In this document: positions 500 to 45,357 of the stretch, in pieces | Numbering within the stretch: the first letter of the stretch is position 1 | Layout: each line of letters opens with the position of its first letter | Program-made: the position numbers and the translations under genes | Notes under the pieces: generated by a model | Seen by the model: only the letters and a program-made list of their open reading frames with translations | Told to the model about the DNA's origin: nothing | Database searches by the model: none | DNA from: an archaeon | GTDB taxonomy: Archaea; Nanobdellota; Nanobdellia; CSSed11-243R1 | Direction: 5' to 3' | NCBI GenBank assembly: GCA_024277205.1 | Contig: JAJRVP010000015.1 | Location: forward strand, 1,645 to 65,644 | DNA length: 64,000 nt

Positions 500-1018
500 T
501 TAACTATCAAAATTATATCTTTGACTTAATTCAATATCTTGTTTATTAAGTTTGTCCACTTTATTTTGATTCTTAGATAAGATAAGTTCTTTTAAGGTTG
601 GATTCATACCAGAATATATTTGTGCAACAAATTTTCCAACATTTTTTGGTTTTAATATATAGGCATTTGAACTACCGGGTGGATTAGTTAAACAGCTTTG
701 ATTTAACCCATCTGGGGGACAGCTTATAACTGGATATACAGAATGATAAGATAATGTTCCAGATAAAGCATCTGTTCCACCTGCAACAGCAATGTACACC
801 AAAGAACCATCTAATTGATTTAATTCCTCAATTATGCCCATTAACTTCTCTGGTTGTTTATGTGCTGAGCAAATCATAACTCTATGTGGAATTTCATAAT
901 CATCTAATGATTTAAGAATTTTTATTATGTGCGGTTCATCACTTCCAGAACCAGCCATAATAACAGCACAACCAGTCTTAGATTTTATAATTTCCTTAAA
1001 ATAGGAATCGATTGCCAT
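500..1018 (-). CDS. purE: N5-carboxyaminoimidazole ribonucleotide mutase (AIR carboxylase catalytic subunit)
   Basis: 172 aa. AVIMAGSGSD...YIAVAGG motifs are typical of the PurE fold. Sits in a pur cluster. Confidence 0.85.
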   Translation of the reverse strand: MAIDSYFKEIIKSKTGCAVIMAGSGSDEPHIIKILKSLDDYEIPHRVMICSAHKQPEKLMGIIEELNQLDGSLVYIAVAGGTDALSGTLSYHSVYPVISCPPDGLNQSCLTNPPGSSNAYILKPKNVGKFVAQIYSGMNPTLKELILSKNQNKVDKLNKQDIELSQRYNFDS

Positions 1019-1040: not shown

Positions 1041-2438
1041 TTACTCCAAAATTAATTTATCAACTATATACTCAGCTTCACCAGTATAAGATGATGGACC
1101 GAATCTAATAATATTTCTCAATTCATCTTTAATCCTCTCTGGAATAACAAGATTATCAACAAATTTTAATAATTCCTCTATGGTTACTTTTCTTCCTCTT
1201 GTTAACTCTTTTAATCCTTCATATGCGCCAATATACCCTTCTCGTCTCAGGATTGTTTGTATTGGTTCTGCAAGTACTTCTGGATGTTCTTCAATGCATT
1301 TTTGCAAATAATCATAATTGGGTTCGATTCTGCTTAATCCTTTTAATGTGTTTTTCCATGCAATAAGCGTATGTCCAAATGCCTCTCCCATTGCTCTTAA
1401 CATAGTTGAGCCAGATAAATCTCTTTGCATTCTAGTAGTTGGCAATTCACTTAATGCTTCAAATATTGCATTTGCAATTCTTATATTCCCTTCGCTATTC
1501 TCAAAATTAATCGGGTTAACTTTGTGTGGCATTGTTGAAGAACCCACTTCTTCTTTTTTCTTTTTTTGTACGAGATAATCATAACTAATGTAAAGCCACA
1601 TATCTAAATCAAGTTTTTTAATTATTGTATTTGTCTCTTTTATTAAATTAAATAACTCAGAATATTCTGTATACCCATCTACTTGTGTTGTTACTAATTT
1701 TGGTTCCAATCCAATTGCTTCTAAAAATTTAACAGAAAATTCAACACCATCTATTATAGGATACGCTGCTACAAGAGCACTGTAATTACCAGTAGCCCCA
1801 TTTAACTTTGCTGGAATTTGGAATTTTTGTAATTTTTCTAATTTTCTGGAAAGTTCATTTGCAAAAACTGCAAATTCTTTACCAAGTGTTGTTGGAGATG
1901 CTGGTTGTCCATGTGTTCTTGCAAGCATTGGTAAATCAGCATATCTATGTGCATAGTCTCCTAATTTTTCAACAATTCTTTTTAACTGAAGTGCAAAGAT
2001 TGTTTGCATTGCTGTATTTAACATACTAGCATATGCAATGTTTGTACAATCCTCTGAAGTTAAAGCAAAATGTACACTTTCTACAACATCTTCTAAAGAA
2101 GCATTCTCTATATTTTCTTTAATAAAATATTCTACTGCTTTTACATCATGATTAATTTTAGAATCTATTTCTTTTATTTTTTTCATAGAATTTAAATCAA
2201 AGTTAAGATAAAGTTGCCTGAGATATTCTTTTTCTTCTTTAGTAAACTCTCTAACATGGGTTATGTCTGGGTGCTCTGATAAAAATATTAAATAATTTAC
2301 TTCCATCCAAACTCTACGCTGTTGTAAACCATATTCTGAAAAGTAATCTCTTAATTCTTTTGTATCTTTAGCATATCTCCCATCAACAGAACTTACTGCA
2401 GTAAAAGAATTCAACAGAAGTTCGTCCATCGTATCCAC
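1041..2438 (-). CDS. purB: adenylosuccinate lyase
   Basis: 465 aa. Fumarate-lyase superfamily signature region (SSxMPHKxN-like GSSTMPHKVNP). Length and context match PurB. Confidence 0.85.
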   Translation of the reverse strand: MDTMDELLLNSFTAVSSVDGRYAKDTKELRDYFSEYGLQQRRVWMEVNYLIFLSEHPDITHVREFTKEEKEYLRQLYLNFDLNSMKKIKEIDSKINHDVKAVEYFIKENIENASLEDVVESVHFALTSEDCTNIAYASMLNTAMQTIFALQLKRIVEKLGDYAHRYADLPMLARTHGQPASPTTLGKEFAVFANELSRKLEKLQKFQIPAKLNGATGNYSALVAAYPIIDGVEFSVKFLEAIGLEPKLVTTQVDGYTEYSELFNLIKETNTIIKKLDLDMWLYISYDYLVQKKKKEEVGSSTMPHKVNPINFENSEGNIRIANAIFEALSELPTTRMQRDLSGSTMLRAMGEAFGHTLIAWKNTLKGLSRIEPNYDYLQKCIEEHPEVLAEPIQTILRREGYIGAYEGLKELTRGRKVTIEELLKFVDNLVIPERIKDELRNIIRFGPSSYTGEAEYIVDKLILE

Positions 2439-3176
2439 CTAAAACCTTCTTACTAGTTCCAACATTTGTTCATATCCTACTTTTGCTTTTTTAACATCTC
2501 CTGTATCTCTATAAACTTGTTTGTCAATCATGTGCTCTTCTATCCCGCCTGGCCATACTCTCCAAGAATCATTTGTTAATTCATCTGCCAGAACTATTTG
2601 TCCATCAGATGTTATTCCGAATTCTACTTTGTAATCTACAAGAGTTGCACCAACATTTTCAAAGGCATCTCTTAGTATTTTGAAGGCCTTTATAGTAATC
2701 CCGTGAATTATCTTATACTGCTCATTTGTTAAAAGCCCTCCAGCAACTGCAAGACTCTTATTTATTGGTGGGTCGTGCTCTGCATCATTTTTGAAATGAG
2801 TTTCAAAAGTTACGTATGGTAATTGCTCTCCTTTTTTGAAAAATGGAAATCTCCTAACTAAAGAACCATATGCAATTTGCCTTGATATGCACTCCAAAGG
2901 AATCATGTCAACTTTTCTAACAAGCTGAGTATTTTCATCTATTTGTTCTACAAAATGAGTTGGTACTCCATGCCTATTTAGGCATCTCATAACTAAACTT
3001 GAAGTCTCACAATTTATTGCACCTTTTCCTTTCATCACATCATGTTTTGCACCATCACCAGCTGTTATATCATCCTTAAAGTATAACAGAGAAAGTTGTG
3101 GATTTTCTGGATGTGCATAAACAGTTTTTGTTTTTCCTTCAGCAATAATCTCCAATTGGCTTAAATCCCATTTCAT
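2439..3176 (-). CDS. purC: phosphoribosylaminoimidazole-succinocarboxamide (SAICAR) synthetase
   Basis: 245 aa with the EGKTK motif and SAICAR synthase-like organisation. Start is adjacent to the purB stop (2438/2439), consistent with an operon. Confidence 0.85.
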   Translation of the reverse strand: MKWDLSQLEIIAEGKTKTVYAHPENPQLSLLYFKDDITAGDGAKHDVMKGKGAINCETSSLVMRCLNRHGVPTHFVEQIDENTQLVRKVDMIPLECISRQIAYGSLVRRFPFFKKGEQLPYVTFETHFKNDAEHDPPINKSLAVAGGLLTNEQYKIIHGITIKAFKILRDAFENVGATLVDYKVEFGITSDGQIVLADELTNDSWRVWPGGIEEHMIDKQVYRDTGDVKKAKVGYEQMLELVRRF

Positions 3177-3260
3177 AAAAACACCCCCAAAACTTAAAAG
3201 AAAAGAAAATAACCAAATATAAATCTTTTGTCACCTTAAAGTTTATAAAAATCAACCCCT

Positions 3261-4616
3261 TTGAAACAGATATGTTTGGGGGTGAAATTTGTGGCTAGTG
3301 TTCTTGTTATAGGTAGTGGAGGAAGAGAGCATGCTCTTGCTTGGAAGCTTGCTCAAAGTCCAGAAGTTGATAAAGTTTATGTTGCTCCAGGAAATGGGGG
3401 AATTGCTACTGAATTTGAAAATGTTCCAATAAAACCAACAGATTTCAAAGCTCTTGCTAATTTTGTAGAAGAAAAAGAAATTAATTTAACAGTTGTTGGA
3501 CCAGACGCTCCTTTGGCAGAAGGAATTGTAGATTACTTTAACGAAATAAAACTAAGAATTTTTGGTCCAACAAAGAATGCAGCTCAAATTGAAGCAGATA
3601 AATATTTTGCAAAAAAGTTAATGCTTGATGGACACATTCCAACTGCATTCTATGTTCCAGCAAGGCTTGACAGTATTGATGTAGCAATTGAGGCAGCGTA
3701 TAACTTCATAGAACAATTTGGTGGTGTTGTTATTAAATACCCCTATCTTGCAGCTGGTAAGGGAGTATATGTCTGTAAAACAAGATGTGAAGCAGAAAAT
3801 GCAATTAAAGACATAACAGATGGTAAGTTTGGCAAAACCAATATAATCCTACTTGAAGAATTACTAAAAGGGGAAGAAGCATCATTCTTGGCTTTTGTAG
3901 ATGGAGAAACAGTGGTTCCTCTTTTGCCCGCACAAGACCATAAACCAATCTATGATGGAGATAAAGGTCCAAACACAGGAGGTATGGGTGCTTATGCACC
4001 AGCACCAATTGTAGATGAAGAAATGCAAAAAAGGATTATGAAAGAAATTATGAAACCAATGATTGATGAAATGAAAGAGGTTGAAATTGGATATAAAGGA
4101 GTTCTTTATGCGGGATTAATGATTACAGAAGATGGTCCAAAAGTTTTAGAATTTAACTGTAGGTTTGGCGACCCAGAGACCCAACCATTAATGGTATTAC
4201 TCGAATCTGATTTATATAATATAATGAATGCTGCAGTTGATAGAAGATTAAATAAAATTGATAAATTAAAATTCAAACCTGGCTATGCAGTAACTGTTGT
4301 TATGGCATCGCAAGGATATCCCGGGAGTTATGAGAAAGGAAAACTAATAACAGGATTAAATGAAATTTCAATAAAACAAACTGGAACACCATTTGACAAA
4401 TATAGGGGTGTTAATGTTTTCCACGCTGGGACAAAACTTGGTGAAGAAGGAAACTTACTTACCAATGGTGGAAGAGTTCTGGGAGTGACAGCATGGGATG
4501 CGACTCTTTCTGGAGCACAAGGAATTGCATACGACAATATTGCAAAAATTAACTTTGATGGTGTATTCTATAGAACAGACATTGCAGACAAAGGCATCAG
4601 GAGGATAAGAAGTTGA
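3261..4616 (+). CDS. purD: phosphoribosylamine-glycine ligase (GAR synthetase)
   Basis: 451 aa. N-terminal VLVIGSGGREHALAWKL matches the PurD signature and an ATP-grasp region follows. Divergent from purC across an AT-rich spacer. Confidence 0.85.
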   Translation: MKQICLGVKFVASVLVIGSGGREHALAWKLAQSPEVDKVYVAPGNGGIATEFENVPIKPTDFKALANFVEEKEINLTVVGPDAPLAEGIVDYFNEIKLRIFGPTKNAAQIEADKYFAKKLMLDGHIPTAFYVPARLDSIDVAIEAAYNFIEQFGGVVIKYPYLAAGKGVYVCKTRCEAENAIKDITDGKFGKTNIILLEELLKGEEASFLAFVDGETVVPLLPAQDHKPIYDGDKGPNTGGMGAYAPAPIVDEEMQKRIMKEIMKPMIDEMKEVEIGYKGVLYAGLMITEDGPKVLEFNCRFGDPETQPLMVLLESDLYNIMNAAVDRRLNKIDKLKFKPGYAVTVVMASQGYPGSYEKGKLITGLNEISIKQTGTPFDKYRGVNVFHAGTKLGEEGNLLTNGGRVLGVTAWDATLSGAQGIAYDNIAKINFDGVFYRTDIADKGIRRIRS

Positions 4617-5713
4617 ACTACGAGCAAATTCATGAGGGGCGCTTAGAATTAATTAGGGCTTATGCGAAAAAGATTTGGGAAGTTTTAATTCCGAAGATGG
4701 AGGTGTGGGATGAAGAAAACCCACTCTTTGATGTGTTTAACAATGCACCATTTTTAAGCAAGGCTGATGTATATTGGGGTGACATTAATGTCATATTGTG
4801 GGGTTCAGGAAGTTTTTCAACAGGAAGGATAGAACTAGAAGAGTGGAGACGAGCAAAAAATGAAATTCCAAATCTCCCGGTTGAGTACTTAGCTGTTGTT
4901 TCAAATAACAAAAAATCGAATGCACGAAAAGTTGCGGAAGACTTTGACCTACCACTTGTGGAAATAGATTTTAAAGAATGGTATAGGGAAAATTATGACA
5001 AAAATTCAAAAAACCCTATCAAAGAAACAGGTTTATTCTTTCCGCCAGGAAGCGAGCTACCAGATGATGTTGAGCATCGATTCAAAATTCGGGAAAAATT
5101 TGAAGAAGGATTAGTAGAGTTACTTCATGAGAAAGCCAAAACATATGCAGACACAATTTTATTTAACTCCCTTCGTGGATATAACTTTCCAATAATTCAT
5201 TCTTATGGCATGTTTTTTGACGACACCCATCCAGCAGATTTGTCATATGTAGATGAAAATGGAATTCCGCTTTATCCTGGCTGGCAGTCTGGCGCAACAC
5301 AGAAAATGATTAAAGATGGACACAAGATATTTAGAAGCAGTTTGATTTGGGTGCATTCAATTGGAGATATCAAAAATATTCAAAATGTTGATTCGGGGGA
5401 ACTTTTGGCATTAAGCGAGGGCATCAGTTACAATGGAAGGGATGCAAAAGAAATTCAAAACATAATGAAAATTACAGAAGATTCTATGCTTGTTGCCTTA
5501 AAAGCGTGGGGGTTATTCCCTCTGTTATGGAGCTATATATCTCATAAGGTGAAAATTCCATATAAGATGTTAGACGATACGGTAGTGTGGAGAAAAGAAC
5601 ATAATATTATCGTTGGAAAAAGGGAGAGGGGTGGAGCAAGGGCTTTTGGCGGCCAGAACTTTAGGTTACATTTGGAAAATCTTTTGGATGATGTTAAATC
5701 TTTAACAAAGTAG
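4613..5713 (+). CDS. formyltransferase-fold protein, divergent PurN-like N-terminal half plus uncharacterised C-terminal extension
   Basis: 366 aa. Start overlaps the purD stop by 4 nt (ATGA coupling). AVVSNNKKSNARKVAEDFDLPLV resembles the PurN nucleotide-binding region. SLRGYNFPIIHSYGMFFDD resembles the catalytic N...H...D segment. The C-terminal 150 aa have no recognisable domain. Confidence 0.4.
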   Translation: MNYEQIHEGRLELIRAYAKKIWEVLIPKMEVWDEENPLFDVFNNAPFLSKADVYWGDINVILWGSGSFSTGRIELEEWRRAKNEIPNLPVEYLAVVSNNKKSNARKVAEDFDLPLVEIDFKEWYRENYDKNSKNPIKETGLFFPPGSELPDDVEHRFKIREKFEEGLVELLHEKAKTYADTILFNSLRGYNFPIIHSYGMFFDDTHPADLSYVDENGIPLYPGWQSGATQKMIKDGHKIFRSSLIWVHSIGDIKNIQNVDSGELLALSEGISYNGRDAKEIQNIMKITEDSMLVALKAWGLFPLLWSYISHKVKIPYKMLDDTVVWRKEHNIIVGKRERGGARAFGGQNFRLHLENLLDDVKSLTK

Positions 5714-6842: not shown

Positions 6843-8397
6843 TAAATTTCCCACTAACAGCATCCATAATAACTTCTTTTTTAGAATTTTTAAAAATTAA
6901 TGTGGCTTTATAAAAAGGATAATATATTTTCCTCTCATTCACAATATCTACTTTTTCTCCTAAACTCCTAACAAAAGCACCTAACTCCTTTGAGTCAATT
7001 TTTGATTCCAATCTCTTAGCACTTACTTTTAATCTATTAGCTTCAATTTTTTTCTTTGCAATCTTCTTAAGAGGTGGAAGTCTCAATTTTGTAAATGGGA
7101 AATAAATTCTGCTTCTTCCAATTTTTTTATCTCTTATCAACCCTTTTTCTAAAAGTTTTTTAAGGGACAACCTAATAGACTCGGGAGAGCGTTTAAGTAA
7201 ATAAGCAATTTCTGTGGTTGTTGCTTTTTTCTTTTTTGTTATAATATTAAAAACCTCCAAATCGTTTGTGTCTAATCCTAAAAGTTCATGTATATCAAAT
7301 AAAATTGAAAAACCTTTATCTAATGAAATAATATTTCCTGTGATTCCATCAAAATAAGCATGGATTGTTAAAAATTCATGCCCAATAATTTTTTTCTTAA
7401 GATATTTTATATCACAACTAAATATTGGACGAAGGATTAAATGAAAACCTGAAATAAGAGCGCTCCTTCCGAAGAATTTGAATCTTCTAGTACTCTTTTT
7501 AATCTTTTGAAATGCTTCTTCTTTGGAGATTTGTGGTTTTATACCTATTGTGCTAACTTCTTCAACTTCAGGTGTGGTTTCTTCTTTTTCTTTTAATTCT
7601 GCTTCTAATTCTTCTAATTCTTTTGTTCTTATTACACGACGGCCAAGTATTCTTGGGGTAATTGCCCGATGTCTTGTCTCTCTTTTTCTTATTTTTACAA
7701 GTTTTGGTGAGGATATATCTCCTTGAATAAAAAATTGTCCTGGTTTAAGTTGTGGTAGCTTTTCTAAATCTTCTTTATTTGGAAAAAATAGTTTAACTGC
7801 ATCAATATCATTCCGAATTGTTAATTTTCCAATTATTTGATTTCCACATTGGGATAAAATATTCTTGCTGACAAGCGCAGGTCTTTGCGTTGCGATTATT
7901 AACCCCAATCCTCTTTTTCTTCCACGCCTACTTATTTCCTCAATTTCTTTTAGAATATTTCCTCTTTGTGGTGCAAATTTGTCAATTTCTTCAATTATAA
8001 TGAGATACGGCTGTTTAATTTTACTACCTATTTTATAAATGGCTCTTAAAAATTTAGAAACTGCCTCTCTTGGATTATCCACTTCTGATACATCAAAGAT
8101 TATGGGAATTCCTTTTCTAAGGGCCTTTTCTGCCAGTTTTTTATAATCTACATTTTCAATAGACAGCTCACAATTCTCTCCAGAGCCCACCCAAAGTATT
8201 GGATACTTATCTTTTAAGCTGAAATATTCTCCTTCTGTATCTATTATGCAAAATCCAATATTATTTTTTGCAAGCTCTTCACATATAACTGCAACAGTAT
8301 AACTTTTACCAGAACCGCTCTGCCCAATTATGCAAGTCCTTCCAGTAACTAATTTATCTGCATCTATTCCTGCTTCAGGAGAGATTGCTAATTCCAT
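6826..8397 (-). CDS. HerA/FtsK-superfamily (DUF87-like) P-loop ATPase with C-terminal winged-helix domain
   Basis: Walker A is GQSGSGKS and Walker B is LIIIEEID. The ATQRP motif is typical of HerA/VirB4-like ATPases. C-terminal TTEIAYLLKRSPESIRLSLKKLLEKGLIRD is wHTH-like. Start chosen at Met25 (8397), downstream of the upstream zinc-finger gene stop; the track ORF extends to 8469. Confidence 0.55.
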   Translation of the reverse strand: MELAISPEAGIDADKLVTGRTCIIGQSGSGKSYTVAVICEELAKNNIGFCIIDTEGEYFSLKDKYPILWVGSGENCELSIENVDYKKLAEKALRKGIPIIFDVSEVDNPREAVSKFLRAIYKIGSKIKQPYLIIIEEIDKFAPQRGNILKEIEEISRRGRKRGLGLIIATQRPALVSKNILSQCGNQIIGKLTIRNDIDAVKLFFPNKEDLEKLPQLKPGQFFIQGDISSPKLVKIRKRETRHRAITPRILGRRVIRTKELEELEAELKEKEETTPEVEEVSTIGIKPQISKEEAFQKIKKSTRRFKFFGRSALISGFHLILRPIFSCDIKYLKKKIIGHEFLTIHAYFDGITGNIISLDKGFSILFDIHELLGLDTNDLEVFNIITKKKKATTTEIAYLLKRSPESIRLSLKKLLEKGLIRDKKIGRSRIYFPFTKLRLPPLKKIAKKKIEANRLKVSAKRLESKIDSKELGAFVRSLGEKVDIVNERKIYYPFYKATLIFKNSKKEVIMDAVSGKFIKSFQ

Positions 8398-8428
8398 AAA
8401 AATCCCAAGAAACTTTATGGTTAAATAT

Positions 8429-8632
8429 TTATTCGTGTTCTTCTTGTTCCATATCTTGTATGTCATCAATTATGTCTGCTTCCTCTTGTTTTTTCTCTTC
8501 AAGTTCATAATTTCTGCAATCATCGCAGAGTTCTGTATCTACATCTCCATGTTCTCTGCAGAAACTAGCACCACATTCTTTACATATAAATACTTCTTCA
8601 ACTTCCTTTTCACATATATTACATTTTGACAT
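8429..8632 (-). CDS. AN1-like zinc-finger mini-protein (paralog B) with acidic C-terminal tail
   Basis: 67 aa. Pattern is C-x2-C-x9-C-x2-C-x4-C-x2-H-x7-C-x2-C, followed by a D/E-rich tail. Lies immediately upstream of and co-directional with the ATPase. Confidence 0.5.
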   Translation of the reverse strand: MSKCNICEKEVEEVFICKECGASFCREHGDVDTELCDDCRNYELEEKKQEEADIIDDIQDMEQEEHE

Positions 8633-8684
8633 ACAATAGTTAGGATTCTAATTATTTTTAAATATTACACTTCTTAAATTTAGC

Positions 8685-9590
8685 ATGGAAATTGTATTTC
8701 TCGGAACTGGCAGCATGTTCCCAACAAAAAAAAGAGCACACCCGAGCATTTTTATCAGAGATGAAAAGATTAAATTTTTATTTGATTGTGGAGAAGGGAC
8801 TCAGCGACAAATGCGTATTGCTGGAATAAGTCCAACAAAGTTAGATTACATATTTATAACTCATTGGCATGGAGACCACACATTAGGGCTTGCTGGCATA
8901 TTTCAATCTCTATCTGCAAGCCAAAGAGAAAGAAAATTAATTGTTTATGGCCCTGTTGGAACAAATGCAAGAGTATCTCATTTACTAAAAGCATTTGCAT
9001 TTGATTTAAAATATCCAATTGAAGTTAATGAAATAAAAATCAAAGAAGGTAAGGTATATAGAATAATTGATGAAAAAGAATTTGCAGTTGAAGCAATGTA
9101 TGTCAAGCATATAATCCCATGTGTTAATTATGCATATATTAAAAAAGGCAAAAGAAAAATAAATCTTGAATATACAAAAAAATTTGGGCTTGTGAGACAC
9201 AAAATTCTTGGAAAACTGCAAAAAGGAGAAACAATTGTTTACAAAGGACACAAAATTACACCTGAAAAAGGAACATACTTAACACCAGATAAAAGAATTA
9301 CGTATATAACGGATACAAATTACTTCAAAGGATTAGAAAAGCTTGCAAAAGATGCAGAAATCCTCATTTCAGAAGGAACTTTTTCAGAAGATTTAGAAAC
9401 AAAAGCTCGTGAATACACCCATATGACTGCTAAAGAAGCTGCAAAGCTTGCTAAAAAGGCAAAAGCAAAAAGATTGGTTTTAACCCATTTCTCACAAAGG
9501 TATAAGGATGTCTCAAAGTTAAAAGAAGAAGCTCAAAAAATTTTCAAAAATGTAGAAACTGCAAATGACTTTGATAAGATTATGATTTGA
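8685..9590 (+). CDS. rnz: ribonuclease Z (tRNA 3' endonuclease), metallo-beta-lactamase fold
   Basis: 301 aa. The HWHGDH motif and the length are typical of short-form RNase Z. Confidence 0.8.
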   Translation: MEIVFLGTGSMFPTKKRAHPSIFIRDEKIKFLFDCGEGTQRQMRIAGISPTKLDYIFITHWHGDHTLGLAGIFQSLSASQRERKLIVYGPVGTNARVSHLLKAFAFDLKYPIEVNEIKIKEGKVYRIIDEKEFAVEAMYVKHIIPCVNYAYIKKGKRKINLEYTKKFGLVRHKILGKLQKGETIVYKGHKITPEKGTYLTPDKRITYITDTNYFKGLEKLAKDAEILISEGTFSEDLETKAREYTHMTAKEAAKLAKKAKAKRLVLTHFSQRYKDVSKLKEEAQKIFKNVETANDFDKIMI

Positions 9591-9672
9591 AAAAATTAGT
9601 TTGCATCAATATTGTATCTGATCGGACATATTTTCTTACAGAAATATATATAAGAAATGGTAAAGTATAAAC

Positions 9673-9894
9673 ATGAACAATGAAGAATATTATGAAATAG
9701 ATATAAAATTGATAAAATCTATTGGAATAGGATTATTTTTAGGAATAATTTTCACAGTTATTGGTGGTGGAATAAATTCTATAGATCCTGTTGTTAGATT
9801 GGAAGCTATTCTTAGATTTATAACTGTTTTTGTGGTTGCAACTCTTATATCATACTCCTCATTAAAATCAATAGAGAAAAGGAAGAATAAATAA
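9673..9894 (+). CDS. small membrane protein, hypothetical
   Basis: 73 aa with two hydrophobic helices. Confidence 0.25.
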   Translation: MNNEEYYEIDIKLIKSIGIGLFLGIIFTVIGGGINSIDPVVRLEAILRFITVFVVATLISYSSLKSIEKRKNK

Positions 9895-9900
9895 ACATTT

Positions 9901-11775
9901 TTAACTCTCTTTAAAAAATTCCTTTATCCTTCTCACAGGTTCTTTTGTCACAATTATATTCCAATCTAATGGGAGGCATTTGAAATAATTTTTCCAGATA
10001 AAACGCTCATCCAAAAGAACAATCACACCCCTATCTGTTTCTGAGCGGATTACTCTACCACACGCCTGAATTGTTCTATTCATTGCAGGATAAATATAGC
10101 CATAGTTCCATCCAGCTCCAAAAAGTTTATCGTAATAATTAATTAAAGCTTGGGTTTCCAAATCTGGTGTTTCAAGAGGGATGCCAACAACGATTACCCC
10201 ATTTAAAAATTTGCCAGGCAAATCAATACCCTCTCCAAAACTTCCACTAATTACACCAAGAAAAACAGCACCCAAATCAGAATATTCTTTAAATTGATTT
10301 AAGAACTCTGCTTTTTCTTTTTTCTTCATGCCAGGTCTTTCCACAAAAATTGTTTTCAAACTTTTTCTTTCAAATGAGTTTAATACTTTGTCCCTAAAAT
10401 TATAAGATGGAAAAAATATTGCAACATTCCCCTTGACTGCATTTGATATTTCTGAGCACCATTCTGCTATTTTTTCATATTCTTCTTTTTTTCTTCTTGT
10501 AAACTTTGTAGTTGTATCTGGAACAATCAAAGAAAGTTGATTTGATTTTGGAAATTGTGGTGGGTATTCCCTACAAATAGTTCTCTCCTCTTCTAATCTT
10601 AATAAATCCCTATACATTCTAGTGGGAGTTAAAGTGCCACTCATTAAGATTGCAGAATGACAAGACTCAAAAATTTCTTGAGATGAAACTCCAGGATCTA
10701 AACAAATCAATTTCAATTCAATTTTTTCTTTTTCCTTCCAATACCCTAATTTTATAATTCCAACATAACCTTCTTCTGCATTTATCCATTCTTGTAAAAA
10801 AGAACCAATGCTTCCAACAAAACTTCTTTTGTTTTCTGCACGTATGTGTTCGCCCACAAGAATCAAATCTCCAGCAAGTTCTTCATAATCTTTATTTGTT
10901 TTTTCAGAAACTATTCTTATGAAATCTTCTTTTCTTACATACATCTCTTTATTTTCTTTTAACTCATTTGAGAGCTCTTCTAAAACTTCACCTATCGAGC
11001 TTATATCACTTGCAATTTCTAAATCCTCAAATTTGCGTGCTTCTCTTATTGCAGAATTTATAGAAAAATTAGAAATCTTTGAAGAAAGCACATTTCTTAT
11101 CCTATCTGGAAGATTTTGGGCTTCATCTATAATTATAATACAATCCTCTAATTCTTTTTTTATTCTTAATAGAAAAGCTTTTCTGACATTTGGATGAAAA
11201 AGGTGATAATAATCAGCAATGATAAAATTTGCATCTTTTGCAAATTCGGATAAAATATAATAAGGGCAAATCTCCTCTTTTGCAGCCATTGCCATTGCTT
11301 GTTCAACATGAAGTGGAGAATTCTCTTTTAACCTTTTAATTAATTCTTTTGCCTCATTAGTTAATTGATTTTTCTTCCATAATTTATTATAAAATGGGCA
11401 TCTCTCTTCTTTTCTTACATCATGACAGTACTCATTAAAATCCTTGCTTGTAAGAGAATTAACACCTGGCACTAAACACATCCATCTTTTGCCAATAAAA
11501 TCTGCAGCAATAATTCTCTTGTTAAACTTTTCTTTAATTTTTTGAAGAGTTTCAACAACAATTTGGTGTTGTGTGTGTTTTGGTGTTAAAAAAATAACAT
11601 TTTTTCCATTTTCAAGAGCATAAGTTAATGCAACAGAGATTACAGCAGCACTTTTTCCAATTCCTGTTGGTGCGTGAGCGATAAGGTGCTTTTTATTTTT
11701 GATTATTTGTTTTAAATCATTAATCATTTTTGATTGTACTGTTCGCATCTCTTCAAAAGGAAAAAGTAATTGCAT
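9901..11775 (-). CDS. XPD/Rad3-family (DinG-like) 5'-3' DNA helicase with FeS-cluster cysteines
   Basis: 624 aa. Walker A is APTGIGKS and the DEAQNL (DEAH-like) box is present. Four Cys are in the XPD FeS-domain arrangement (WMC, C-x.., CPFY, CPYY). Confidence 0.8.
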   Translation of the reverse strand: MQLLFPFEEMRTVQSKMINDLKQIIKNKKHLIAHAPTGIGKSAAVISVALTYALENGKNVIFLTPKHTQHQIVVETLQKIKEKFNKRIIAADFIGKRWMCLVPGVNSLTSKDFNEYCHDVRKEERCPFYNKLWKKNQLTNEAKELIKRLKENSPLHVEQAMAMAAKEEICPYYILSEFAKDANFIIADYYHLFHPNVRKAFLLRIKKELEDCIIIIDEAQNLPDRIRNVLSSKISNFSINSAIREARKFEDLEIASDISSIGEVLEELSNELKENKEMYVRKEDFIRIVSEKTNKDYEELAGDLILVGEHIRAENKRSFVGSIGSFLQEWINAEEGYVGIIKLGYWKEKEKIELKLICLDPGVSSQEIFESCHSAILMSGTLTPTRMYRDLLRLEEERTICREYPPQFPKSNQLSLIVPDTTTKFTRRKKEEYEKIAEWCSEISNAVKGNVAIFFPSYNFRDKVLNSFERKSLKTIFVERPGMKKKEKAEFLNQFKEYSDLGAVFLGVISGSFGEGIDLPGKFLNGVIVVGIPLETPDLETQALINYYDKLFGAGWNYGYIYPAMNRTIQACGRVIRSETDRGVIVLLDERFIWKNYFKCLPLDWNIIVTKEPVRRIKEFFKES

Positions 11776-12465: not shown

Positions 12466-13173
12466 ATGATGGCAGTAATAGTAGTTGACTCATCAACAAT
12501 AATTTCATGTGCAATGAATTGTTTATTGTGGATTTTTGATGAGTTAACCAAAAAAGGCATTACATTTATTGTTCCAAAAGGAGTGAAAAAAGAGGTAGTT
12601 GATAGCGGACTCCGTTCAAAAAAATTCAAATACGAATCAATTAGAGTTATAAGACATTTCTCAAATGGAACTTTTCAAGTTTATGAAGGAGATTTAAGAA
12701 AAGAGGCTTCAAAGCTCCTTAGTTATTCTAATTCAAGTTTCTACATAAGGCATAATCCAATGCGAATTTTGCAAGAAGCAGATGCAGAAGTGGCTGCGCT
12801 TGCCAAGAAAATAAAGGCTGATGCAATTCTAACAGATGAAAAGACATTAAGGATGTTGATTGAAAGTCATGACTTTGTAAAAAAGATGTTAGAGAAAAAA
12901 TTTGGTGAAAAAATAAGAATGAATGAAAGTGCATTACATTCATTTGTTAAAAATGTGGGTAATATTGAGATAATTCGTTCTGTAGATTTAATAGCATTAG
13001 CATATTCTCTTGGTGTTTTTGATGAAATGCTAAAAAAATGCTTTGAATCAGGCGAAATCGCATCTAAAAAAGATTTAATAGAGGGTTTACTATTCGCCCT
13101 AAAATTCTCTGGATGTGCTGTTTCATTTAAAGAAATAAATGATTATGTCAATATACTTTTAAAGGAGAGATAA
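12466..13173 (+). CDS. PIN-domain-like protein (putative nuclease), hypothetical
   Basis: 235 aa. N-terminal IVVDSSTII and later ILTDEKTL resemble PIN acidic motifs. Only 3 nt separate it from the upstream gene. Confidence 0.3.
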   Translation: MMAVIVVDSSTIISCAMNCLLWIFDELTKKGITFIVPKGVKKEVVDSGLRSKKFKYESIRVIRHFSNGTFQVYEGDLRKEASKLLSYSNSSFYIRHNPMRILQEADAEVAALAKKIKADAILTDEKTLRMLIESHDFVKKMLEKKFGEKIRMNESALHSFVKNVGNIEIIRSVDLIALAYSLGVFDEMLKKCFESGEIASKKDLIEGLLFALKFSGCAVSFKEINDYVNILLKER

Positions 13174-13397: not shown

Positions 13398-15761
13398 TTC
13401 TTCTTCTGCAATTTCAATAAATTTCTTTCTTTTTTCAGCAGCAGCTACAATTCTTTTTGTTTTTTCAACAACATCTGGATTTACAGAAATAGAATCTATC
13501 CCAGACATGACTAAAAACTCTGCAAACTCTGGATATGTGCTTGGTGCTTGTCCACAAATTGAAACTGATTTTCCATGCTTATGGAACCCTTCTATAATCC
13601 TTTTTATTCCATGCAAAACAGCAGCATTTCTTTCATCAAAATATCCCATCTTCCCAAGAAGTTCTGAATCTCTATCTACTCCCAAAATTAATTGTGTCAA
13701 ATCATTTGAACCAATAGAAGCACCATCAATTTCAAGTTTTGCAAACTCTTCTGGCATTATTGCAACAGCAGGAACTTCAGCCATAATAAAAATCTTGAAT
13801 TGTTCATCTCTAATTAAACCTTCATTTTGAATTATTTTTATTACTTTTTTAACTTCGCTTGTTTTTCTAACAAAAGGAAGCATAACCCACACATTTTTGA
13901 ATTGTTCTCGAACTTTTTTAATAGCTCTGCATTCTAATCTAAATGCTGGCTCAAAAACTTCAGAAACATATCTTGAAACTCCTCTCCAACCTATCATTGG
14001 ATTATCTTCTTTTGGCTCATATTTATCTCCACCAATAAGATTCTCATATTCATTTGTTTTAAAATCGCTAAATCTCACAATAACAGGACGTGGATAAATT
14101 GCTGATGCAACTTTTTTAATTCCTTCAGCAAGTTTATCAATGTATTCTTGCTCTCTTCCTTGTTCAATCATGTGCAATGGGTGCTCTTTAATATCATCTG
14201 CAATTATGAATTCAACTCTCATTAAACCAATTCCATCAATTGGCAAATCTTTGTAATCATCTATTTTTTCAGGAATTCCAAGATTCATATAAATCTTAGT
14301 TGCAGTTTCAATTTGTTCAATGGGCACTTTTGGTTTTTGTTCAACAGGCTTTGCTTCAGCAGCTTTAAGAGACTTAACTTGTTCACCTTTGTAAACTAAT
14401 CCATTAATTGCATCAACAGTAATTAAATCTCCATCTTTCAGGATTTGTGTTGCTTTTTCAGTTCCAACAACACAAGGTATTCCCATTTCACGACTTACAA
14501 TTGCTGCATGGCTTGTAATACCCCCTTCATTTGTAACAATTGCTGCTGCTCTTTTCATTGCAGGAACAAAATCTGGGTCTGTCATTTTTGTTACAAGAAT
14601 GTCTCCTTGTTGCACTTTATCGAGTTCATTTACATCGTGAACAATTTTTACTCTTCCAGAAATTATACCATGGCTTGCAGGCAAACCTTTGAGAATTGGT
14701 TCCCCACTTGGCTCTGGAGCAGTTTCAATCTTTTCCTTTTTAAGAGTTGTAATGGGTCTGCTTTGAACAATGAAAAGTTTCTTGCCTTCATATGCCCACT
14801 CAATGTCCTGTGGGAAGTTGTAATGGTCTTCTATTCGCTTAACCACTTTTGCCAATTCAATTATTTCTTCATCTGCTAAAACTTGAGAGGAACGTTTTGG
14901 TTCATCCAAAATGATTTTTTTATTTTTTCCAGAAGGATCTCTAATAATCATAAAATCTTTTTTCATAATTTTCTTTTCAATTATTTTCCAATCATCTTTG
15001 TCAACAACATAATGGTCTGGATTAATTGCCCCGGAAACAATTGCTTCTCCAAGCCCCCAACCCGCTTCTATAACTATTTTATCAGGTTGTTCTGTAATTG
15101 GGTCAACACTAAATGCAACACCACTTTTTGTAGAATCTACCATTTTTTGAACAATAACACAAATTTTTACTTTGAAATGGTCGAATTTATTTTTTTCACG
15201 ATAAAAAATTGCACGGGCAGTAAACAAAGAAGCCCAACAGTCTTTAACTGCTTCAAGCAAATCATCTCCGCCCTTCACATTAAGAAATGTTGCCTGTTGT
15301 CCAGCAAAACTTGCACCAGGTAAATCTTCTGCTGTTGCACTTGAACGAACAGCTACAAAGGGTGGCTCTCTTGCAGCATTAATAAACATACCCACTGATT
15401 TTGGCAAATCATAACTACTTTTATACATGGACTCATATGCTTTCACTATTGCAGAAGAAATCTCATCTGGAATTTGTTCAGCTCGTATTATTGTCTGAAC
15501 TTGTTTTGAAGCTGATTGCAAAGAATCATTATCATCAACATTCAAATCTGACAAAACTTCTTTAATCTCATCTTTAATCCCTGTTATTTCAAGAAATTTT
15601 TCATAAGCATATGCTGTAACAGCAAACCCAGGGGGCACTGGGAACCCAGAATTATACATTTCACCCAAATTAGCTCCTTTTCCACCAACATAGGGAATGT
15701 CTTCTTTGTTAATCTCTTTAAAATTTAGTATTAAAGCATGTTTTTTATCCAATATCCTCAC
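13386..15761 (-). CDS. ppsA: phosphoenolpyruvate synthase (pyruvate, water dikinase)
   Basis: 791 aa. GGKGANLGEM is the ATP-grasp signature. GGITSHAAIVSREMGIPCVVG is the phosphohistidine domain. A C-terminal PEP-utilising TIM barrel follows. Confidence 0.85.
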   Translation of the reverse strand: MRILDKKHALILNFKEINKEDIPYVGGKGANLGEMYNSGFPVPPGFAVTAYAYEKFLEITGIKDEIKEVLSDLNVDDNDSLQSASKQVQTIIRAEQIPDEISSAIVKAYESMYKSSYDLPKSVGMFINAAREPPFVAVRSSATAEDLPGASFAGQQATFLNVKGGDDLLEAVKDCWASLFTARAIFYREKNKFDHFKVKICVIVQKMVDSTKSGVAFSVDPITEQPDKIVIEAGWGLGEAIVSGAINPDHYVVDKDDWKIIEKKIMKKDFMIIRDPSGKNKKIILDEPKRSSQVLADEEIIELAKVVKRIEDHYNFPQDIEWAYEGKKLFIVQSRPITTLKKEKIETAPEPSGEPILKGLPASHGIISGRVKIVHDVNELDKVQQGDILVTKMTDPDFVPAMKRAAAIVTNEGGITSHAAIVSREMGIPCVVGTEKATQILKDGDLITVDAINGLVYKGEQVKSLKAAEAKPVEQKPKVPIEQIETATKIYMNLGIPEKIDDYKDLPIDGIGLMRVEFIIADDIKEHPLHMIEQGREQEYIDKLAEGIKKVASAIYPRPVIVRFSDFKTNEYENLIGGDKYEPKEDNPMIGWRGVSRYVSEVFEPAFRLECRAIKKVREQFKNVWVMLPFVRKTSEVKKVIKIIQNEGLIRDEQFKIFIMAEVPAVAIMPEEFAKLEIDGASIGSNDLTQLILGVDRDSELLGKMGYFDERNAAVLHGIKRIIEGFHKHGKSVSICGQAPSTYPEFAEFLVMSGIDSISVNPDVVEKTKRIVAAAEKRKKFIEIAEEESLE

Positions 15762-32831: not shown

Positions 32832-33617
32832 TTATCCACCACTCTGGTAGCCTTTTTTGGATTTCCATGTCCATAAAATCACCAGCAATAGAACTAGTGA
32901 GAAGGGTTTATTAAAGTTGGAAGAAATTTCAAGTTTTAGAAACAAAAATAAAGGAGAATTTGGATCATCCCTGTTTGGATGAATTTCAAGCCAATTAGCA
33001 AGATAAGGAGTTGATGTAATTAATCTTATTCTTCTCATGCCTGTTTTTCCACTCACAATTATTTTTGCTCCATATTTGTCAAAATTTAAATGTTTAATCT
33101 GCATTGTTGCTAATTCACCAATTCTGCAACCAGATTCATAAAGTGTTGAAATGAGTGCTTTGTCCCTAACATGCCCTGCTGCTTCTATCAATCTTTTTAC
33201 TTCTTCAATTGTCAGGATTTCCTCTGGCAATCTGCTTTTTCCATTTTTCATAGTTGTTTTTAACCATTTGATTTTTTCTGGATACTCTCCATTGTTTAGC
33301 CATTTGTAGAATTTCTTTATAGAAATCTTGTGCAACTGCTTTGTCCATTCTGCATAATCCATTCTTTCTATTTTTTGAACCAAATCCAACAAATCTTCTT
33401 TATTTGCTTTGTCCAAATCTTTGTTCAGCCAAGATATTATGTTTTTCAAAAGATAAAGGTATCGCTCCACTCTCACAATGCTGAGCCCTTGTGCAAAGCA
33501 ATCCCTTTGAAATTTTAAAAGCAGTTCCTTGTTTCTCTTTGAGATTTTTCTAGACTTTTTAATTTTCTCAAGAACTTGTCTAAGCCTTTTCTCAGATTCA
33601 TGAATGTCCTGCTTCAT
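32832..33617 (-). pseudogene. tyrosine recombinase/integrase (XerC/XerD-like), C-terminally truncated
   Basis: N-terminal SAM-like core-binding domain and box I with catalytic Arg (ESGCRIGEL) are present. After NSPLF the frame degenerates, and the HxxR and Tyr motifs are absent. Confidence 0.55.
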
Positions 33618-38237: not shown

Positions 38238-38810
38238 ATGAAATTAGAAGAAAAACTAAACATGAAAGTAAAATCAAGGGGGTTAATTCGATTTCTTGAA
38301 AAATTAGATGCTACTATTCTAACACCAAGAGAAATAATTGCGAAATTCAAAAAAAGATATCGCAAAGAAGAACCACACTTAGAAATTGAAAGAGATATTT
38401 ACAAGATATATAACACCCTCAAAGAGTTAGATTATGCAGTGGACATAAAAGATTTCACAAAACCATTCCTATCTCTTGAATCTCTTGAAGATGGAGTAAT
38501 ACCCCAATATGATTTTGGAGAGGATATTGTAGCTGCAAAAGCAATTGGAGATGGAAAAAGACTTCATGCAAGAATGTGGAAATCCAAAACACAAAATGGT
38601 GAGAAATGCTACAGAGTAGAAGCCCACACAGAAATTTATCCTACAACAGGAAAATTAAATTATCCCAAGACATTATGGCAATGGTTGACAAGAGCTAGCC
38701 TTCATATTCGTGACCCAAAAGCAGATTATAACAAAGGCGCACAAATGCTATTAAATGAAATAATGGGATATATAGAAGTATATAATATTCAAACTCTCAT
38801 TAAAGCTTAG
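38238..38810 (+). CDS. hypothetical protein
   Basis: 190 aa. Confidence 0.25.
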   Translation: MKLEEKLNMKVKSRGLIRFLEKLDATILTPREIIAKFKKRYRKEEPHLEIERDIYKIYNTLKELDYAVDIKDFTKPFLSLESLEDGVIPQYDFGEDIVAAKAIGDGKRLHARMWKSKTQNGEKCYRVEAHTEIYPTTGKLNYPKTLWQWLTRASLHIRDPKADYNKGAQMLLNEIMGYIEVYNIQTLIKA

Positions 38811-44061: not shown

Positions 44062-45357
44062 TCAATGTCTCAACATTGGTGGGGGCTTCCTATGTGGCGG
44101 ATGGCGTATGTGGGTTACACGACTGCGGGCCGCCCGTATATTGCTTGCAGCAAATGAACGTGGTGAAGGATCTCTTGATGGTTTATTCAATTGATAACTT
44201 AACATACTGCTTGGGGGACCTGGTGGCCTTACTGACGAGTTTCTCCTGTTGTAACTATCTGTATTCCCTTGAGAACTATCCGACGAAATGTTACCAAATT
44301 TACCAGACGAATAATTACTGGTATCCGGAGACGTCGAAATAACATTTTGTGGCAATCTTTGAGCATAAGCAATTTCATGAAATCTTTCTTTCTCCTTAAT
44401 TAGTGAAGGCAACCTTTGTTTATAGAAAGTATCTCCTGAATCTCCAAGAATCTTGTAGTAATCTATGGCAATAGATATCAAACCCTCAGCTGACTTGAAA
44501 TCTTTTTCATCAACAGCCATGTATGTCATAGAAAGGAGTATTTCAGGAATGACTAATAGAGTATCATAATCAACATCCTTAGCATCCATCTTCCTGCGCC
44601 AAACAGTAAGAGCGTGATCCATATCATTAATAGCATCTTTTCTACTGCCAATTTCTTCGTAAATACTTCCCCTTATGTACAATGAAGTAATATCATCTTT
44701 CCTGAATCCAAGCGCAGAGTTAATTGAGGATAAAGCAGAATTTAAATCGCATCTTTCCATGTTAACATATGTAAGCAAATACATCAAATTAAGATACTCC
44801 TTACTATTCCTACTTTGATGTATTGTCTTTCCAGCCATATAATCTCTACCATAATCCAAATATCTCTTAGCACTTAATAATTCACCTTTGTTATATCTAA
44901 GTCCCCCTAGGTAACTAACAGTTTTCATAAGCACATTCATAACATCATCATCATTAGAATTGGGTATAGCCAACAATAAATCTTCCAATCCTTTTATTGA
45001 ACTAGAAGAACCAAAATTCTCAAAACTAATCGTATAAAAATCATAAAAAAATTCCATAGCAGCAGGATAATCCGCAAGGCGATTTAGATTTATTGTATCA
45101 TCTGAAAGAAGAATATTCATTGAGTCTGCAAGTAATTGTATTCCCCTATTTTTACTTTTGAGTTTTTGCACTTCATTAGTTTCTTGCATACCCGCAAGGT
45201 ATTCATACTTTCCGACAAGGTATGTTATTTCCCCACTATTATCCATCCTTGCTGCAGTTTCAAGATAGCTTATAGCATCACTTGCCCTCTCTGCCCTCCT
45301 AACTGCATCAGCATAAGGTTTCGCTTTTGCATTCGCTTTCCATCTCGCCATAATCAA
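44062..45357 (-). CDS. TPR-like repeat protein with GC-rich, Pro/Ser/Arg-rich C-terminal extension
   Basis: 431 aa. The helical repeat region is followed by a low-complexity tail, encoded by 44062..44340 at markedly higher GC. Confidence 0.4.
   Translation of the reverse strand: MIMARWKANAKAKPYADAVRRAERASDAISYLETAARMDNSGEITYLVGKYEYLAGMQETNEVQKLKSKNRGIQLLADSMNILLSDDTINLNRLADYPAAMEFFYDFYTISFENFGSSSSIKGLEDLLLAIPNSNDDDVMNVLMKTVSYLGGLRYNKGELLSAKRYLDYGRDYMAGKTIHQSRNSKEYLNLMYLLTYVNMERCDLNSALSSINSALGFRKDDITSLYIRGSIYEEIGSRKDAINDMDHALTVWRRKMDAKDVDYDTLLVIPEILLSMTYMAVDEKDFKSAEGLISIAIDYYKILGDSGDTFYKQRLPSLIKEKERFHEIAYAQRLPQNVISTSPDTSNYSSGKFGNISSDSSQGNTDSYNRRNSSVRPPGPPSSMLSYQLNKPSRDPSPRSFAASNIRAARSRVTHIRHPPHRKPPPMLRH

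Follow-up and report, generated by a model that had tools for sequence, protein, structure and literature searches.

The 366-amino-acid open reading frame that follows purD in the 64,000-nucleotide stretch of archaeal DNA analyzed here (hereafter the window), referred to as X and located at positions 4613..5713 of the + strand with a TTG start, is a strongly divergent representative of the PurN-type formyltransferases as a superfamily and belongs to a small family without annotation. We predict X to be a divergent PurN-type GAR transformylase, with a probability that we place at about 0.65, on the basis of its fold, its homology to PurN mediated by a group of intermediate sequences, the conservation of a His/Asp pair, a Gly/Ser loop and a Gln/Asp pair, and its repeated linkage to purine synthesis (pur) genes. 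A non-canonical GAR transformylase had already been put forward in a sequence-only reading of this DNA, and it is the best reading of X because of the PurN-like fold, the homology through the intermediates and the pur linkage, while the architecture and the motif assignment given to the protein at that time were wrong.

Results

X is surrounded by a pur cluster in which purE-purB-purC diverge from purD-X, an arrangement proposed earlier and borne out here by the Pfam and NCBIfam matches of the neighbors. The - strand carries a divergent purE-like gene of the AIR carboxylase family (500..1018; PF00731, E 3.4e-21; 72 bits against TIGR01162, under the 149.6-bit cutoff of that model), purB for adenylosuccinate lyase (1041..2438; NF006764, E 4.8e-172) and purC for SAICAR synthetase (2439..3176; PF01259, E 5.6e-67). 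The divergent intergenic region between purC and purD (3177..3260) contains the TATA-like TTTATAAAAA at 3242-3251, a putative promoter element, and is followed on the + strand by purD for GAR synthetase (3261..4616; TIGR00877, E 5.7e-148; Pfam GARS_N/A/C), whose true start is probably the GTG at 3291, with GGGGGTGA upstream at 3278-3285. The junction of purD and X (4599..4616, + strand) reads as a site of translational coupling, with AGGAGG at 4599-4604, 8 nt upstream of the X TTG (4613-4615), and the purD TGA at 4614-4616. The overlap of the X start with the end of purD, already described at first, is 4 nt long. The closest relative of X (locus L009, 77% identity) has the identical 4-nt purD/X overlap, in the form of ATGA. 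X is a real gene, since 88 homologues of 350-400 aa share 18 invariant columns and the predicted fold is confident.

No match was obtained for X against Pfam and NCBIfam (hmmscan at E<=1, PF00551 and TIGR00639 included), nor for nine further family members against Pfam, the Pfam scan covering 10 members in all and the NCBIfam scan the window protein only; PDB sequences likewise gave no match to X or to the X-family profile (phmmer/hmmsearch). An exhaustive HMM search of 1.84 billion representatives with the family profile reached proteins of 200-300 aa at E-values of 1e-11 to 1e-3, and 68 of these divergent PurN-like proteins constitute the group here called A2. They are metagenomic, some of them from Lentisphaeria/Victivallaceae, and match Pfam Formyl_trans_N (53/68) and the TIGR00639 PurN model (62/68); two are fused to PurD, and fusions to 5-formyl-THF cyclo-ligase also occur. 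Profile alignment connects the X family to A2 (hhalign, 99.8% probability, E 3.5e-28, 210 columns) and A2 to E. coli PurN (99.7% probability, E 3.4e-25, PurN residues 1-202 covered), and X scores 98 bits against the HMM built from A2. By such profile comparisons the homology of X to PurN is demonstrable transitively, through the A2 intermediates; the X-family profile aligned to the single E. coli PurN sequence has the motif register correct at an E-value (0.12) that is not significant alone. HPADL, D-(I/F)-x-x-(F/W)-Y, RSS(V/L)(H/I), VDxG and Q...K...D are common to the X family and A2. Unlike X, A2 keeps the catalytic Asn, within an NVHPADL motif, is devoid of the insertion and of the N- and C-terminal helices described below, and is still matched by the PurN and Formyl_trans_N models. 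A search of the 64-kb window and of 97 fetched loci found no PurN-like ORF besides X, and no ATP-grasp PurT was present among the window ORFs scanned.

The AF2 model of X (pLDDT 91.9, pTM 0.91) contains the formyltransferase N-domain fold, with its Rossmann-like half and its catalytic half, and the top 17 Foldseek matches were all PurN (E 9e-9 to 9e-7; target-normalised TM 0.64-0.77). The structure prediction advised at the outset did yield a formyltransferase-fold match, the nearest structures being PurN GAR transformylases. The sequence-only reading had described a PurN half followed by a 150-aa C-terminal domain, which is wrong: the PurN fold extends over residues ~58-335 and the additional residues are distributed among four parts of the protein, namely an N-terminal extension, an insertion at ~128-150, loops that are enlarged, and a helix at the C-terminus. 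The N-terminal extension (residues 1-57; 4613..4783, + strand), with a long helix at 3-30 in the DSSP assignment of the model, is not found in PurN and does not align to A2 or PurN. The insertion (4994..5062, + strand), seen as a gap in the hhalign comparison of the X family (A1) and A2, is absent from A2 and PurN and includes the nearly invariant P135, and the C-terminal helix (residues 350-366; 5660..5710, + strand; DSSP H350-365) lies outside the PurN fold. These two helices and the insertion are X-family-specific decorations, and a role in oligomerisation or in reshaping the cofactor pocket would be a guess.

Column counts over 66 sequences of the family, together with the alignments to A2 and E. 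coli PurN, locate the active-site equivalents. The loop G64-S-G-S-F-S-T-G71 (4802..4825, + strand), in which G66, T70 and G71 are invariant and G64 and S65 nearly so, lines up with SGSG-N in A2 and with SGNGSN in E. coli PurN, the S-G-x-G-S-N loop which we take to function in GAR phosphate binding. A helix further downstream (5456..5482, + strand) bears Q282 and K286, both invariant, and D290, which is nearly so; in the chained alignments (A1-A2, A2-PurN) Q282 (66/66) corresponds to PurN Q170 and D290 (64 Asp, 2 Glu) to PurN E173, presumably helix positions in contact with GAR. Aligned via A2, the equivalents of the catalytic His108 and Asp144 of PurN are H206 and D260. The latter, present in 65 of the 66 sequences and replaced by a gap in the remaining one, belongs to D260-S-G262 (5390..5398, + strand), the counterpart of PurN D144-G-G, which aligns to VDxGPIL of A2 and LDGGPVIL of PurN. 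The former stands in D203-D204-T-H206-P-A-D-L-S211 (5219..5245, + strand), equivalent to PurN L-N106-I-H108-P-S-L-L-P, where DDTHPADLS aligns to A2 NVHPADL and PurN NIHPSLL, D204, T205, H206 and P207 are invariant (66/66) and position 203 is either Asp or Asn. The catalytic triad of PurN is Asn-His-Asp (PMC4786211, PMC4887040), and its Asn106, two residues before the His, is an Asp (D204) in every one of the 66 sequences; the SLLP motif, which in PurN has been linked to tetrahydrofolate binding (PMC4786211), is ADLS in X. The segment D119-F-x-x-W123-Y...P135 is highly conserved as well. As for the PurN-like segments recognized from the letters, AVVSNNKKSNARKVAEDFDLPLV lies at residues 94-116 and matches the strand-2 'V-x-S-N' region of PurN, and N-x-P-I-I-H (residues 191-196) is not the catalytic motif, H196 not being conserved and the catalytic equivalent being D204-T-H206-P. 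The earlier description of the locus thus stands for the ORF, the purD overlap, the pur cluster and the former segment, and fails for the C-terminal domain and the latter motif.

The tie between X and purine synthesis that the window had suggested recurs elsewhere, pur clusters containing X being found here and in four other lineages, mutually divergent at 49% identity or less. Their arrangements are purD-X with the 4-nt overlap in the window clade, purD-GYD-X in a WOR-3 bacterium (L018), purL-purQ-X with abutting genes (L008 and L096), purA, guaA-like, X, purM, purL, purQ and purC-purE (L041), and X followed by a purC-purE fusion and purB (L051). Pur neighbors occur in only 10 of the ~69 assessable X loci, one of which (L016) has only a purB-like match ~8.5 kb from X, and are lacking in Asgard and most WOR-3 members. 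In Asgard archaea, in most WOR-3, in Bathyarchaeia and in one Nanoarchaeia genome, X is flanked by non-pur genes, including those for V-ATPase, tRNA endonuclease, SecA, PBP, ribosomal proteins, enoyl-CoA hydratase and DUF362, and these neighborhoods are uninformative. A position next to purD does not in itself single out step 3 of the pathway; purH-purD operons exist in bacteria, and purD is often located beside purH.

Discussion

In the mechanism that we favor, X would carry out step 3 (GAR transformylase) of the de novo purine pathway of this archaeon, most likely formylating the GAR made by PurD, whose gene lies upstream and is translationally coupled to X, and the resulting FGAR would be the substrate of PurL/PurQ. 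GAR is accordingly the predicted acceptor, the donor would be a 10-formyl-folate-type cofactor, and the invariant Asp in place of Asn106 is expected to still support formyl transfer. The reference enzyme is PurN (EC 2.1.2.2; PF00551, TIGR00639; e.g., E. coli 1c2t, Aquifex 2ywr), the folate-dependent GAR transformylase, with which X shares the equivalents of His108, Asp144, the Gly/Ser loop, Q170 and E173, besides its location in pur clusters. Unlike PurN, X is ~150 residues longer, has Asp for Asn106 and ADLS for SLLP, and is missed by the PF00551 and TIGR00639 models. Other formyltransferases differ from X: PurU, the formyltetrahydrofolate deformylase, has an N-terminal ACT domain absent from X and ranks under PurN in both structure searches, while Fmt, ArnA and the sugar N-formyltransferases act on tRNA or nucleotide-sugar acceptors and possess at the C-terminus a substrate domain, OB-like or of another kind, which X, found in a purine-synthesis gene context, does not have. 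Membership of X in PurU or Fmt was rejected because of the architecture and the structure-search ranking.

Since most family members, the Asgard and most WOR-3 ones included, have no pur neighbors and the catalytic Asn is replaced, X might be a formyl- or acyltransferase for an unrelated acceptor, or an altered or regulatory PurN paralogue whose pur linkage is incidental; the differing pur arrangements in five divergent lineages, several of them abutting or overlapping, and the very strong conservation of the active-site positions make this unlikely. That X is instead an AICAR transformylase (step 9) with a PurN fold, replacing PurH or PurP, appears distinctly unlikely. This reading would be compatible with a formyltransferase within pur clusters, with the frequent proximity of purD and purH in bacteria and with the lack of purH/purP in the window and in the pur-linked loci, but the nearest structures are all GAR transformylases, the residues aligned to the GAR side of PurN (loop, Q170, E173) are conserved, the immediate neighbors of X are step-2 and step-4 enzymes, and we know of no PurN-fold AICAR transformylase. 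Nothing speaks specifically in its favor, and X gave no PurH-like (AICARFT/IMPCHase) structure or Pfam match, its fold being PurN-like. We hold it very unlikely that X is a PurU-like formyl-folate hydrolase whose formate would feed a ligase of the PurT or PurP type encoded at another locus: although 21-24 of the 68 A2 members also match PurU models and archaeal pur clusters do contain PurU genes (PMC3261824), the structure-search ranking mentioned above favors PurN, the N-terminus of X has neither an ACT domain nor a Pfam match, the Gly/Ser loop is PurN-like, and the examined pur-linked loci contain no ATP-grasp PurT/PurP gene.

A further possibility retains the PurN fold and GAR as acceptor and changes the chemistry, with a different one-carbon donor (methanopterin-type or other non-folate) or a modified mechanism. 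Such a change would account for the invariant D204 where PurN has Asn106, for the missing SLLP and for the conserved insertions that lie toward the cofactor side, among which the D119-F-x-x-W123-Y...P135 region is highly conserved. Many X hosts are moreover Lokiarchaeia or Bathyarchaeia, which carry methanopterin-type C1 pathways, and archaea with complete purine pathways yet without purN or purT have been described (Brown et al., 2011; PMC3261824). On the other hand, the related A2 proteins share HPADL and D-I-x-x-F-Y, keep the Asn and include the cyclo-ligase fusions, all of which point to folate chemistry; the X family is also present in WOR-3 bacteria and DPANN archaea, has no named member from Archaeoglobi, Methanopyrus or Methanobacteriales, and formyl-methanopterin is not considered a competent donor (PMC3261824). 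Another donor or mechanism is for these reasons improbable. There is equally little chance that the family as a whole represents a mechanistically distinct GAR formyltransferase, with the PurN scaffold adapted, through the invariant Asp for Asn, the missing SLLP and the conserved insertions, to a non-canonical (non-folate or modified-folate) one-carbon donor of Asgard, Bathyarchaeia and DPANN archaea; if true, this would add to PurN and PurT a third way of making FGAR.

If X is the predicted GAR transformylase, its function is the expected one, and the result is therefore mainly an advance in annotation and family definition rather than a new kind of system. Wherever X is the only GAR transformylase, automated metabolic reconstructions would record no enzyme for step 3 of purine synthesis, and such calls could falsely imply purine auxotrophy, a matter of relevance to the physiology of DPANN and Asgard archaea. 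A simple enzymological question is posed in addition by the Asn-to-Asp change, which nature has fixed in a catalytic triad that is well studied. The 2011 gap of a 'missing GAR formyltransferase' in Archaeoglobi, Methanopyrus and some methanogens (PMC3261824) was considered as a place for the family, which is not supported, no named member occurring there; members from these groups may still exist, since most matches are metagenomic sequences without an organism name. Nothing was found in the literature on a new archaeal GAR formyltransferase, nor on the purN/purT status of Asgard archaea. The hosts comprise Asgard archaea, among them the cultured Promethearchaeum syntrophicum MK-D1 and Lokiarchaeum ossiferum, together with Bathyarchaeia, one Thermoplasmata MAG, DPANN Nanoarchaeota and WOR-3/Stahlbacteria. 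By synteny, the MK-D1 gene would be DSAG12_01688, to which no COG, arCOG or KO is assigned. COG0299, COG0027 and COG0138 do not occur in the portion of the MK-D1 gene table that was covered, which says nothing about their absence from the genome. NCBI sources name the family members 'hypothetical protein', and one of them (P0089) bears in JGI/IMG the name 'folate-dependent phosphoribosylglycinamide formyltransferase PurN'.

Gene X and its purine cluster

The gene X, a 366-aa ORF at 4613-5713 on the plus strand, lies behind purD (3261-4616, +), which is divergent from purC (2439-3176, -), purB (1041-2438, -) and a purE-like gene (500-1018, -). The sequence-only reading had described this cluster, this ORF and its coupling to purD, and all three hold: the TTG start of X (4613) and the TGA stop of purD (4614-4616) overlap by 4 nt and AGGAGG occurs at 4599-4604, 8 nt 5' of the start, which makes translational coupling plausible. 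The nearest relatives are DPANN Nanoarchaeota, the closest being a Nanoarchaeota MAG (locus L009; 77% identity), where the same overlap with purD reads ATGA. The window has a G+C content of ~31%, contains archaeal genes including those for Nre, GatD/GatE, aRF1 and ribosomal protein L15e, and starts inside an ATP-dependent DNA ligase gene downstream of purE.

The neighboring pur genes have peculiarities of their own. The mechanical start of purD, TTG 3261, is probably too early: GGGGGTGA stands at 3278-3285, ahead of a GTG codon at 3291, and residue 13 is the first to be matched by GARS_N; a TATA-like TTTATAAAAA is located at 3242-3251 in the spacer between purC and purD. The purE-like product is divergent (Pfam AIRC, E 3e-21; TIGR01162 only 72 bits vs. 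a cutoff of 149.6), and the window showed no purK, so that the protein may be either a mutase or a carboxylase. PurC (245 aa) is only ~30% identical to that of L009 (336 aa; 7548-8558, -), which is nearer to the PurC-PurE fusion of locus L051 (43%), whereas the flanking purB and purD products share 70 and 78% identity with their L009 counterparts; this looks like a replacement of purC between close relatives. PurE is missing from the L006/L009 cluster.

Fold and relationship to PurN

No match to X was found in Pfam and NCBIfam, even at E ≤ 1, and nothing significant among PDB sequences; a profile of 66 members of its family (family X) likewise matched no PDB sequence, nor did nine other members give a meaningful Pfam match. 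The structure prediction that the sequence-only reading had proposed as a check gave a confident AlphaFold2 model (66-sequence alignment; mean pLDDT 91.9, pTM 0.91), for which the best 17 Foldseek matches were all PurN (E 9e-9 to 9e-7, target-normalised TM 0.64-0.77), ahead of Fmt and PurU. In the structure-search ranking, PurN was followed by PurU (14.8), the formyl-THF dehydrogenase hydrolase domain (13.4), Fmt (13.3) and sugar N-formyltransferases (~12).

A sequence bridge was provided by ~80 proteins of 200-300 aa ranking below family X itself in an exhaustive HMM search (whole-library E 1e-11 to 1e-3), 68 of which were aligned (A2). TIGR00639 PurN matched 62 of the 68 and Pfam Formyl_trans_N 53, while two members are fused with a complete PurD and three with 5-formyl-THF cyclo-ligase. 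Profile-profile comparison connected family X with A2 (99.8% probability, E 3.5e-28, 210 columns) and A2 with E. coli PurN (query identical to 1c2t_A; 99.7%, E 3.4e-25, covering residues 1-202), and X scored 98 bits with the A2 HMM. Fold matches and these transitive links together establish the homology of X and PurN, though no curated model detects X.

The A2 group (P0112-P0193) is itself loosely defined, with some members from Lentisphaeria/Victivallaceae and the motif NVHPADL where PurN has NIHPSLLP. Its fusion proteins include P0121 and P0170 (PurD), and P0120, P0175 and others (cyclo-ligase). Scores lie far under the TIGR00639 cutoff, and A2 proteins may be under-annotated too.

The PurN fold of X extends from about residue 58 to a C-terminal beta-hairpin (306-334), opening with a strand (58-64) and the GSGSFSTG loop. 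The 150-aa C-terminal domain previously supposed does not exist: the excess of ~150 residues over PurN is spread along the protein, as an N-terminal extension (1-57) that carries a long helix (3-30), an insertion missing from A2 and PurN (~128-150), longer loops (~193-200, 211-220 and 248-259) and a C-terminal helix (350-365). Nor was the N-x-P-I-I-H segment (191-196) catalytic; it lines up with the stretch that follows LAGF in PurN, and its H196 is not conserved. The catalytic motif has its equivalent in DDTHPADLS (203-211).

Active site

Residues were equated by chaining the alignments of family X with A2 and of A2 with E. coli PurN. The SGNGSN loop, Q170 and E173 of PurN, which we take to touch the phosphate and ribose of GAR, correspond to the conserved GSGSFSTG loop, Q282 (66/66 sequences) and D290 (64 Asp, 2 Glu). 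All 66 sequences keep the His108 equivalent (H206) and 65 that of Asp144 (D260), while at D204 Asp occupies, in all 66, the place of Asn106, the remaining member of the PurN catalytic triad (PMC4786211, PMC4887040). Since A2 retains Asn here, Asp is a derived feature of family X, and by homology D204, H206 and D260 would cluster in space. The SLLP motif, tied to tetrahydrofolate binding (PMC4786211), is replaced by ADLS in family X and A2 alike. Among the 18 invariant columns of family X are G66, T70, G71, N98, D119, W123, R160, S186, R188, G189 and F192, together with D204-T-H206-P207, Q282 and K286.

Distribution and gene context

A word-indexed search returned 88 homologues, each 350-400 aa long and almost all either nameless or called 'hypothetical protein', and the family is small, with only 27 matches at E < 1e-30 among 1.84 billion cluster representatives (exhaustive HMM search). 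Its hosts are Nanoarchaeota, Asgard archaea (Lokiarchaeia/Promethearchaeota, Hodarchaeota, Sigynarchaeota), Bathyarchaeota, one Thermoplasmata MAG and WOR-3/Stahlbacteria; the carriers include the cultured Lokiarchaeum ossiferum and Promethearchaeum syntrophicum MK-D1. Synteny identifies the gene of MK-D1 as DSAG12_01688, a 'hypothetical protein' without COG, arCOG or KO in its supplementary-table entry, purM and purB being present among the entries listed there (Imachi et al., 2020). One member, P0089, is already called 'folate-dependent phosphoribosylglycinamide formyltransferase PurN' at JGI/IMG.

Neighbors were examined at 97 loci. Family X genes occur within pur clusters in five lineages, at most 49% identical to one another: overlapping or 4 nt from purD in the window clade; after purD and a GYD-domain gene in a WOR-3 bacterium (L018); as purL-purQ-X in L008; in the same order, abutting, in L096; and in a lineage comprising L041 (purA, guaA-like gene, X, purM, purL, purQ, purC-purE), L051 (X, purC-purE fusion, purB) and L091 (only a guaA-like gene adjoining X). 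X thus repeatedly stands directly after the enzyme making GAR or consuming FGAR. No second PurN-like gene was found in the window or in these pur clusters, and no ATP-grasp PurT-like gene among the ORFs scanned in the window and pur-linked loci.

The L018 PurD (8049-11116 region) is 49% identical to that of the window (3261-5713 region) and is likewise encoded just 5' of X, the GYD-domain gene intervening, a hint that purD and X travelled together between DPANN archaea and WOR-3 bacteria. The purine clusters of L041 and L051 share a conserved DJ-1/PfpI-family gene (14522-15058 and 2670-3206), which separates the purC-purE fusion from purQ or from X. Divergent and directly 5' of X in three related contigs is a gene for an unusually long (742 aa) protein combining a class-I glutamine amidotransferase with a GMP-synthase C-terminal domain (L041 5586-7814, -; L051 2-520, -; L091 3695-5278, -).

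Predicted function

The best reading, with a probability of about 0.65, is the non-canonical GAR transformylase already suggested from the sequence, which now has the support of the fold, of the transitive homology and of the recurring gene neighborhoods: X would be a divergent PurN-type enzyme working between PurD and PurL/Q and converting GAR to FGAR. The exchange of Asn for Asp, the missing SLLP motif and the insertions, which are conserved, would also suit an enzyme that accepts GAR with an unusual donor or mechanism; this we consider improbable. Any pur neighbor was present at only 10 of ~69 assessable loci, including L016, whose sole one is a purB-like match ~8.5 kb off, and the Asgard and most WOR-3 copies are surrounded by unrelated genes, as might be expected of an unrelated or regulatory role; set beside the five pur-linked lineages, this too is unlikely.

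PurD also adjoins purH in some bacteria, so that a place beside purD would not by itself settle which step X catalyses; a PurN-fold AICAR transformylase nonetheless seems quite unlikely, X being found after purL-purQ as well. A PurU-like formyl-folate hydrolase, the fold next to PurN in the structure ranking, is slightly less probable still. Seven archaea with otherwise intact purine pathways have neither purN nor purT (Brown et al., 2011, PMC3261824); none of the named family X members comes from their groups, and we therefore do not claim that the family fills this gap.

As a novel, unannotated form of an enzyme whose kind is known, family X is of value mainly for annotating metabolism in the genomes of Asgard archaea, DPANN archaea and WOR-3 bacteria, and its altered triad is an enzymological curiosity. 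Elsewhere in the window, large ORFs without a Pfam match (E ≤ 0.001) are found at 38800-41067 (-, 755 aa), 44062-45357 (-, 431 aa), 53511-54503 (-, 330 aa) and 12466-13173 (+, 235 aa), and a tyrosine recombinase gene of the phage-integrase family (32832-33617, -) could mark an integrated element nearby.
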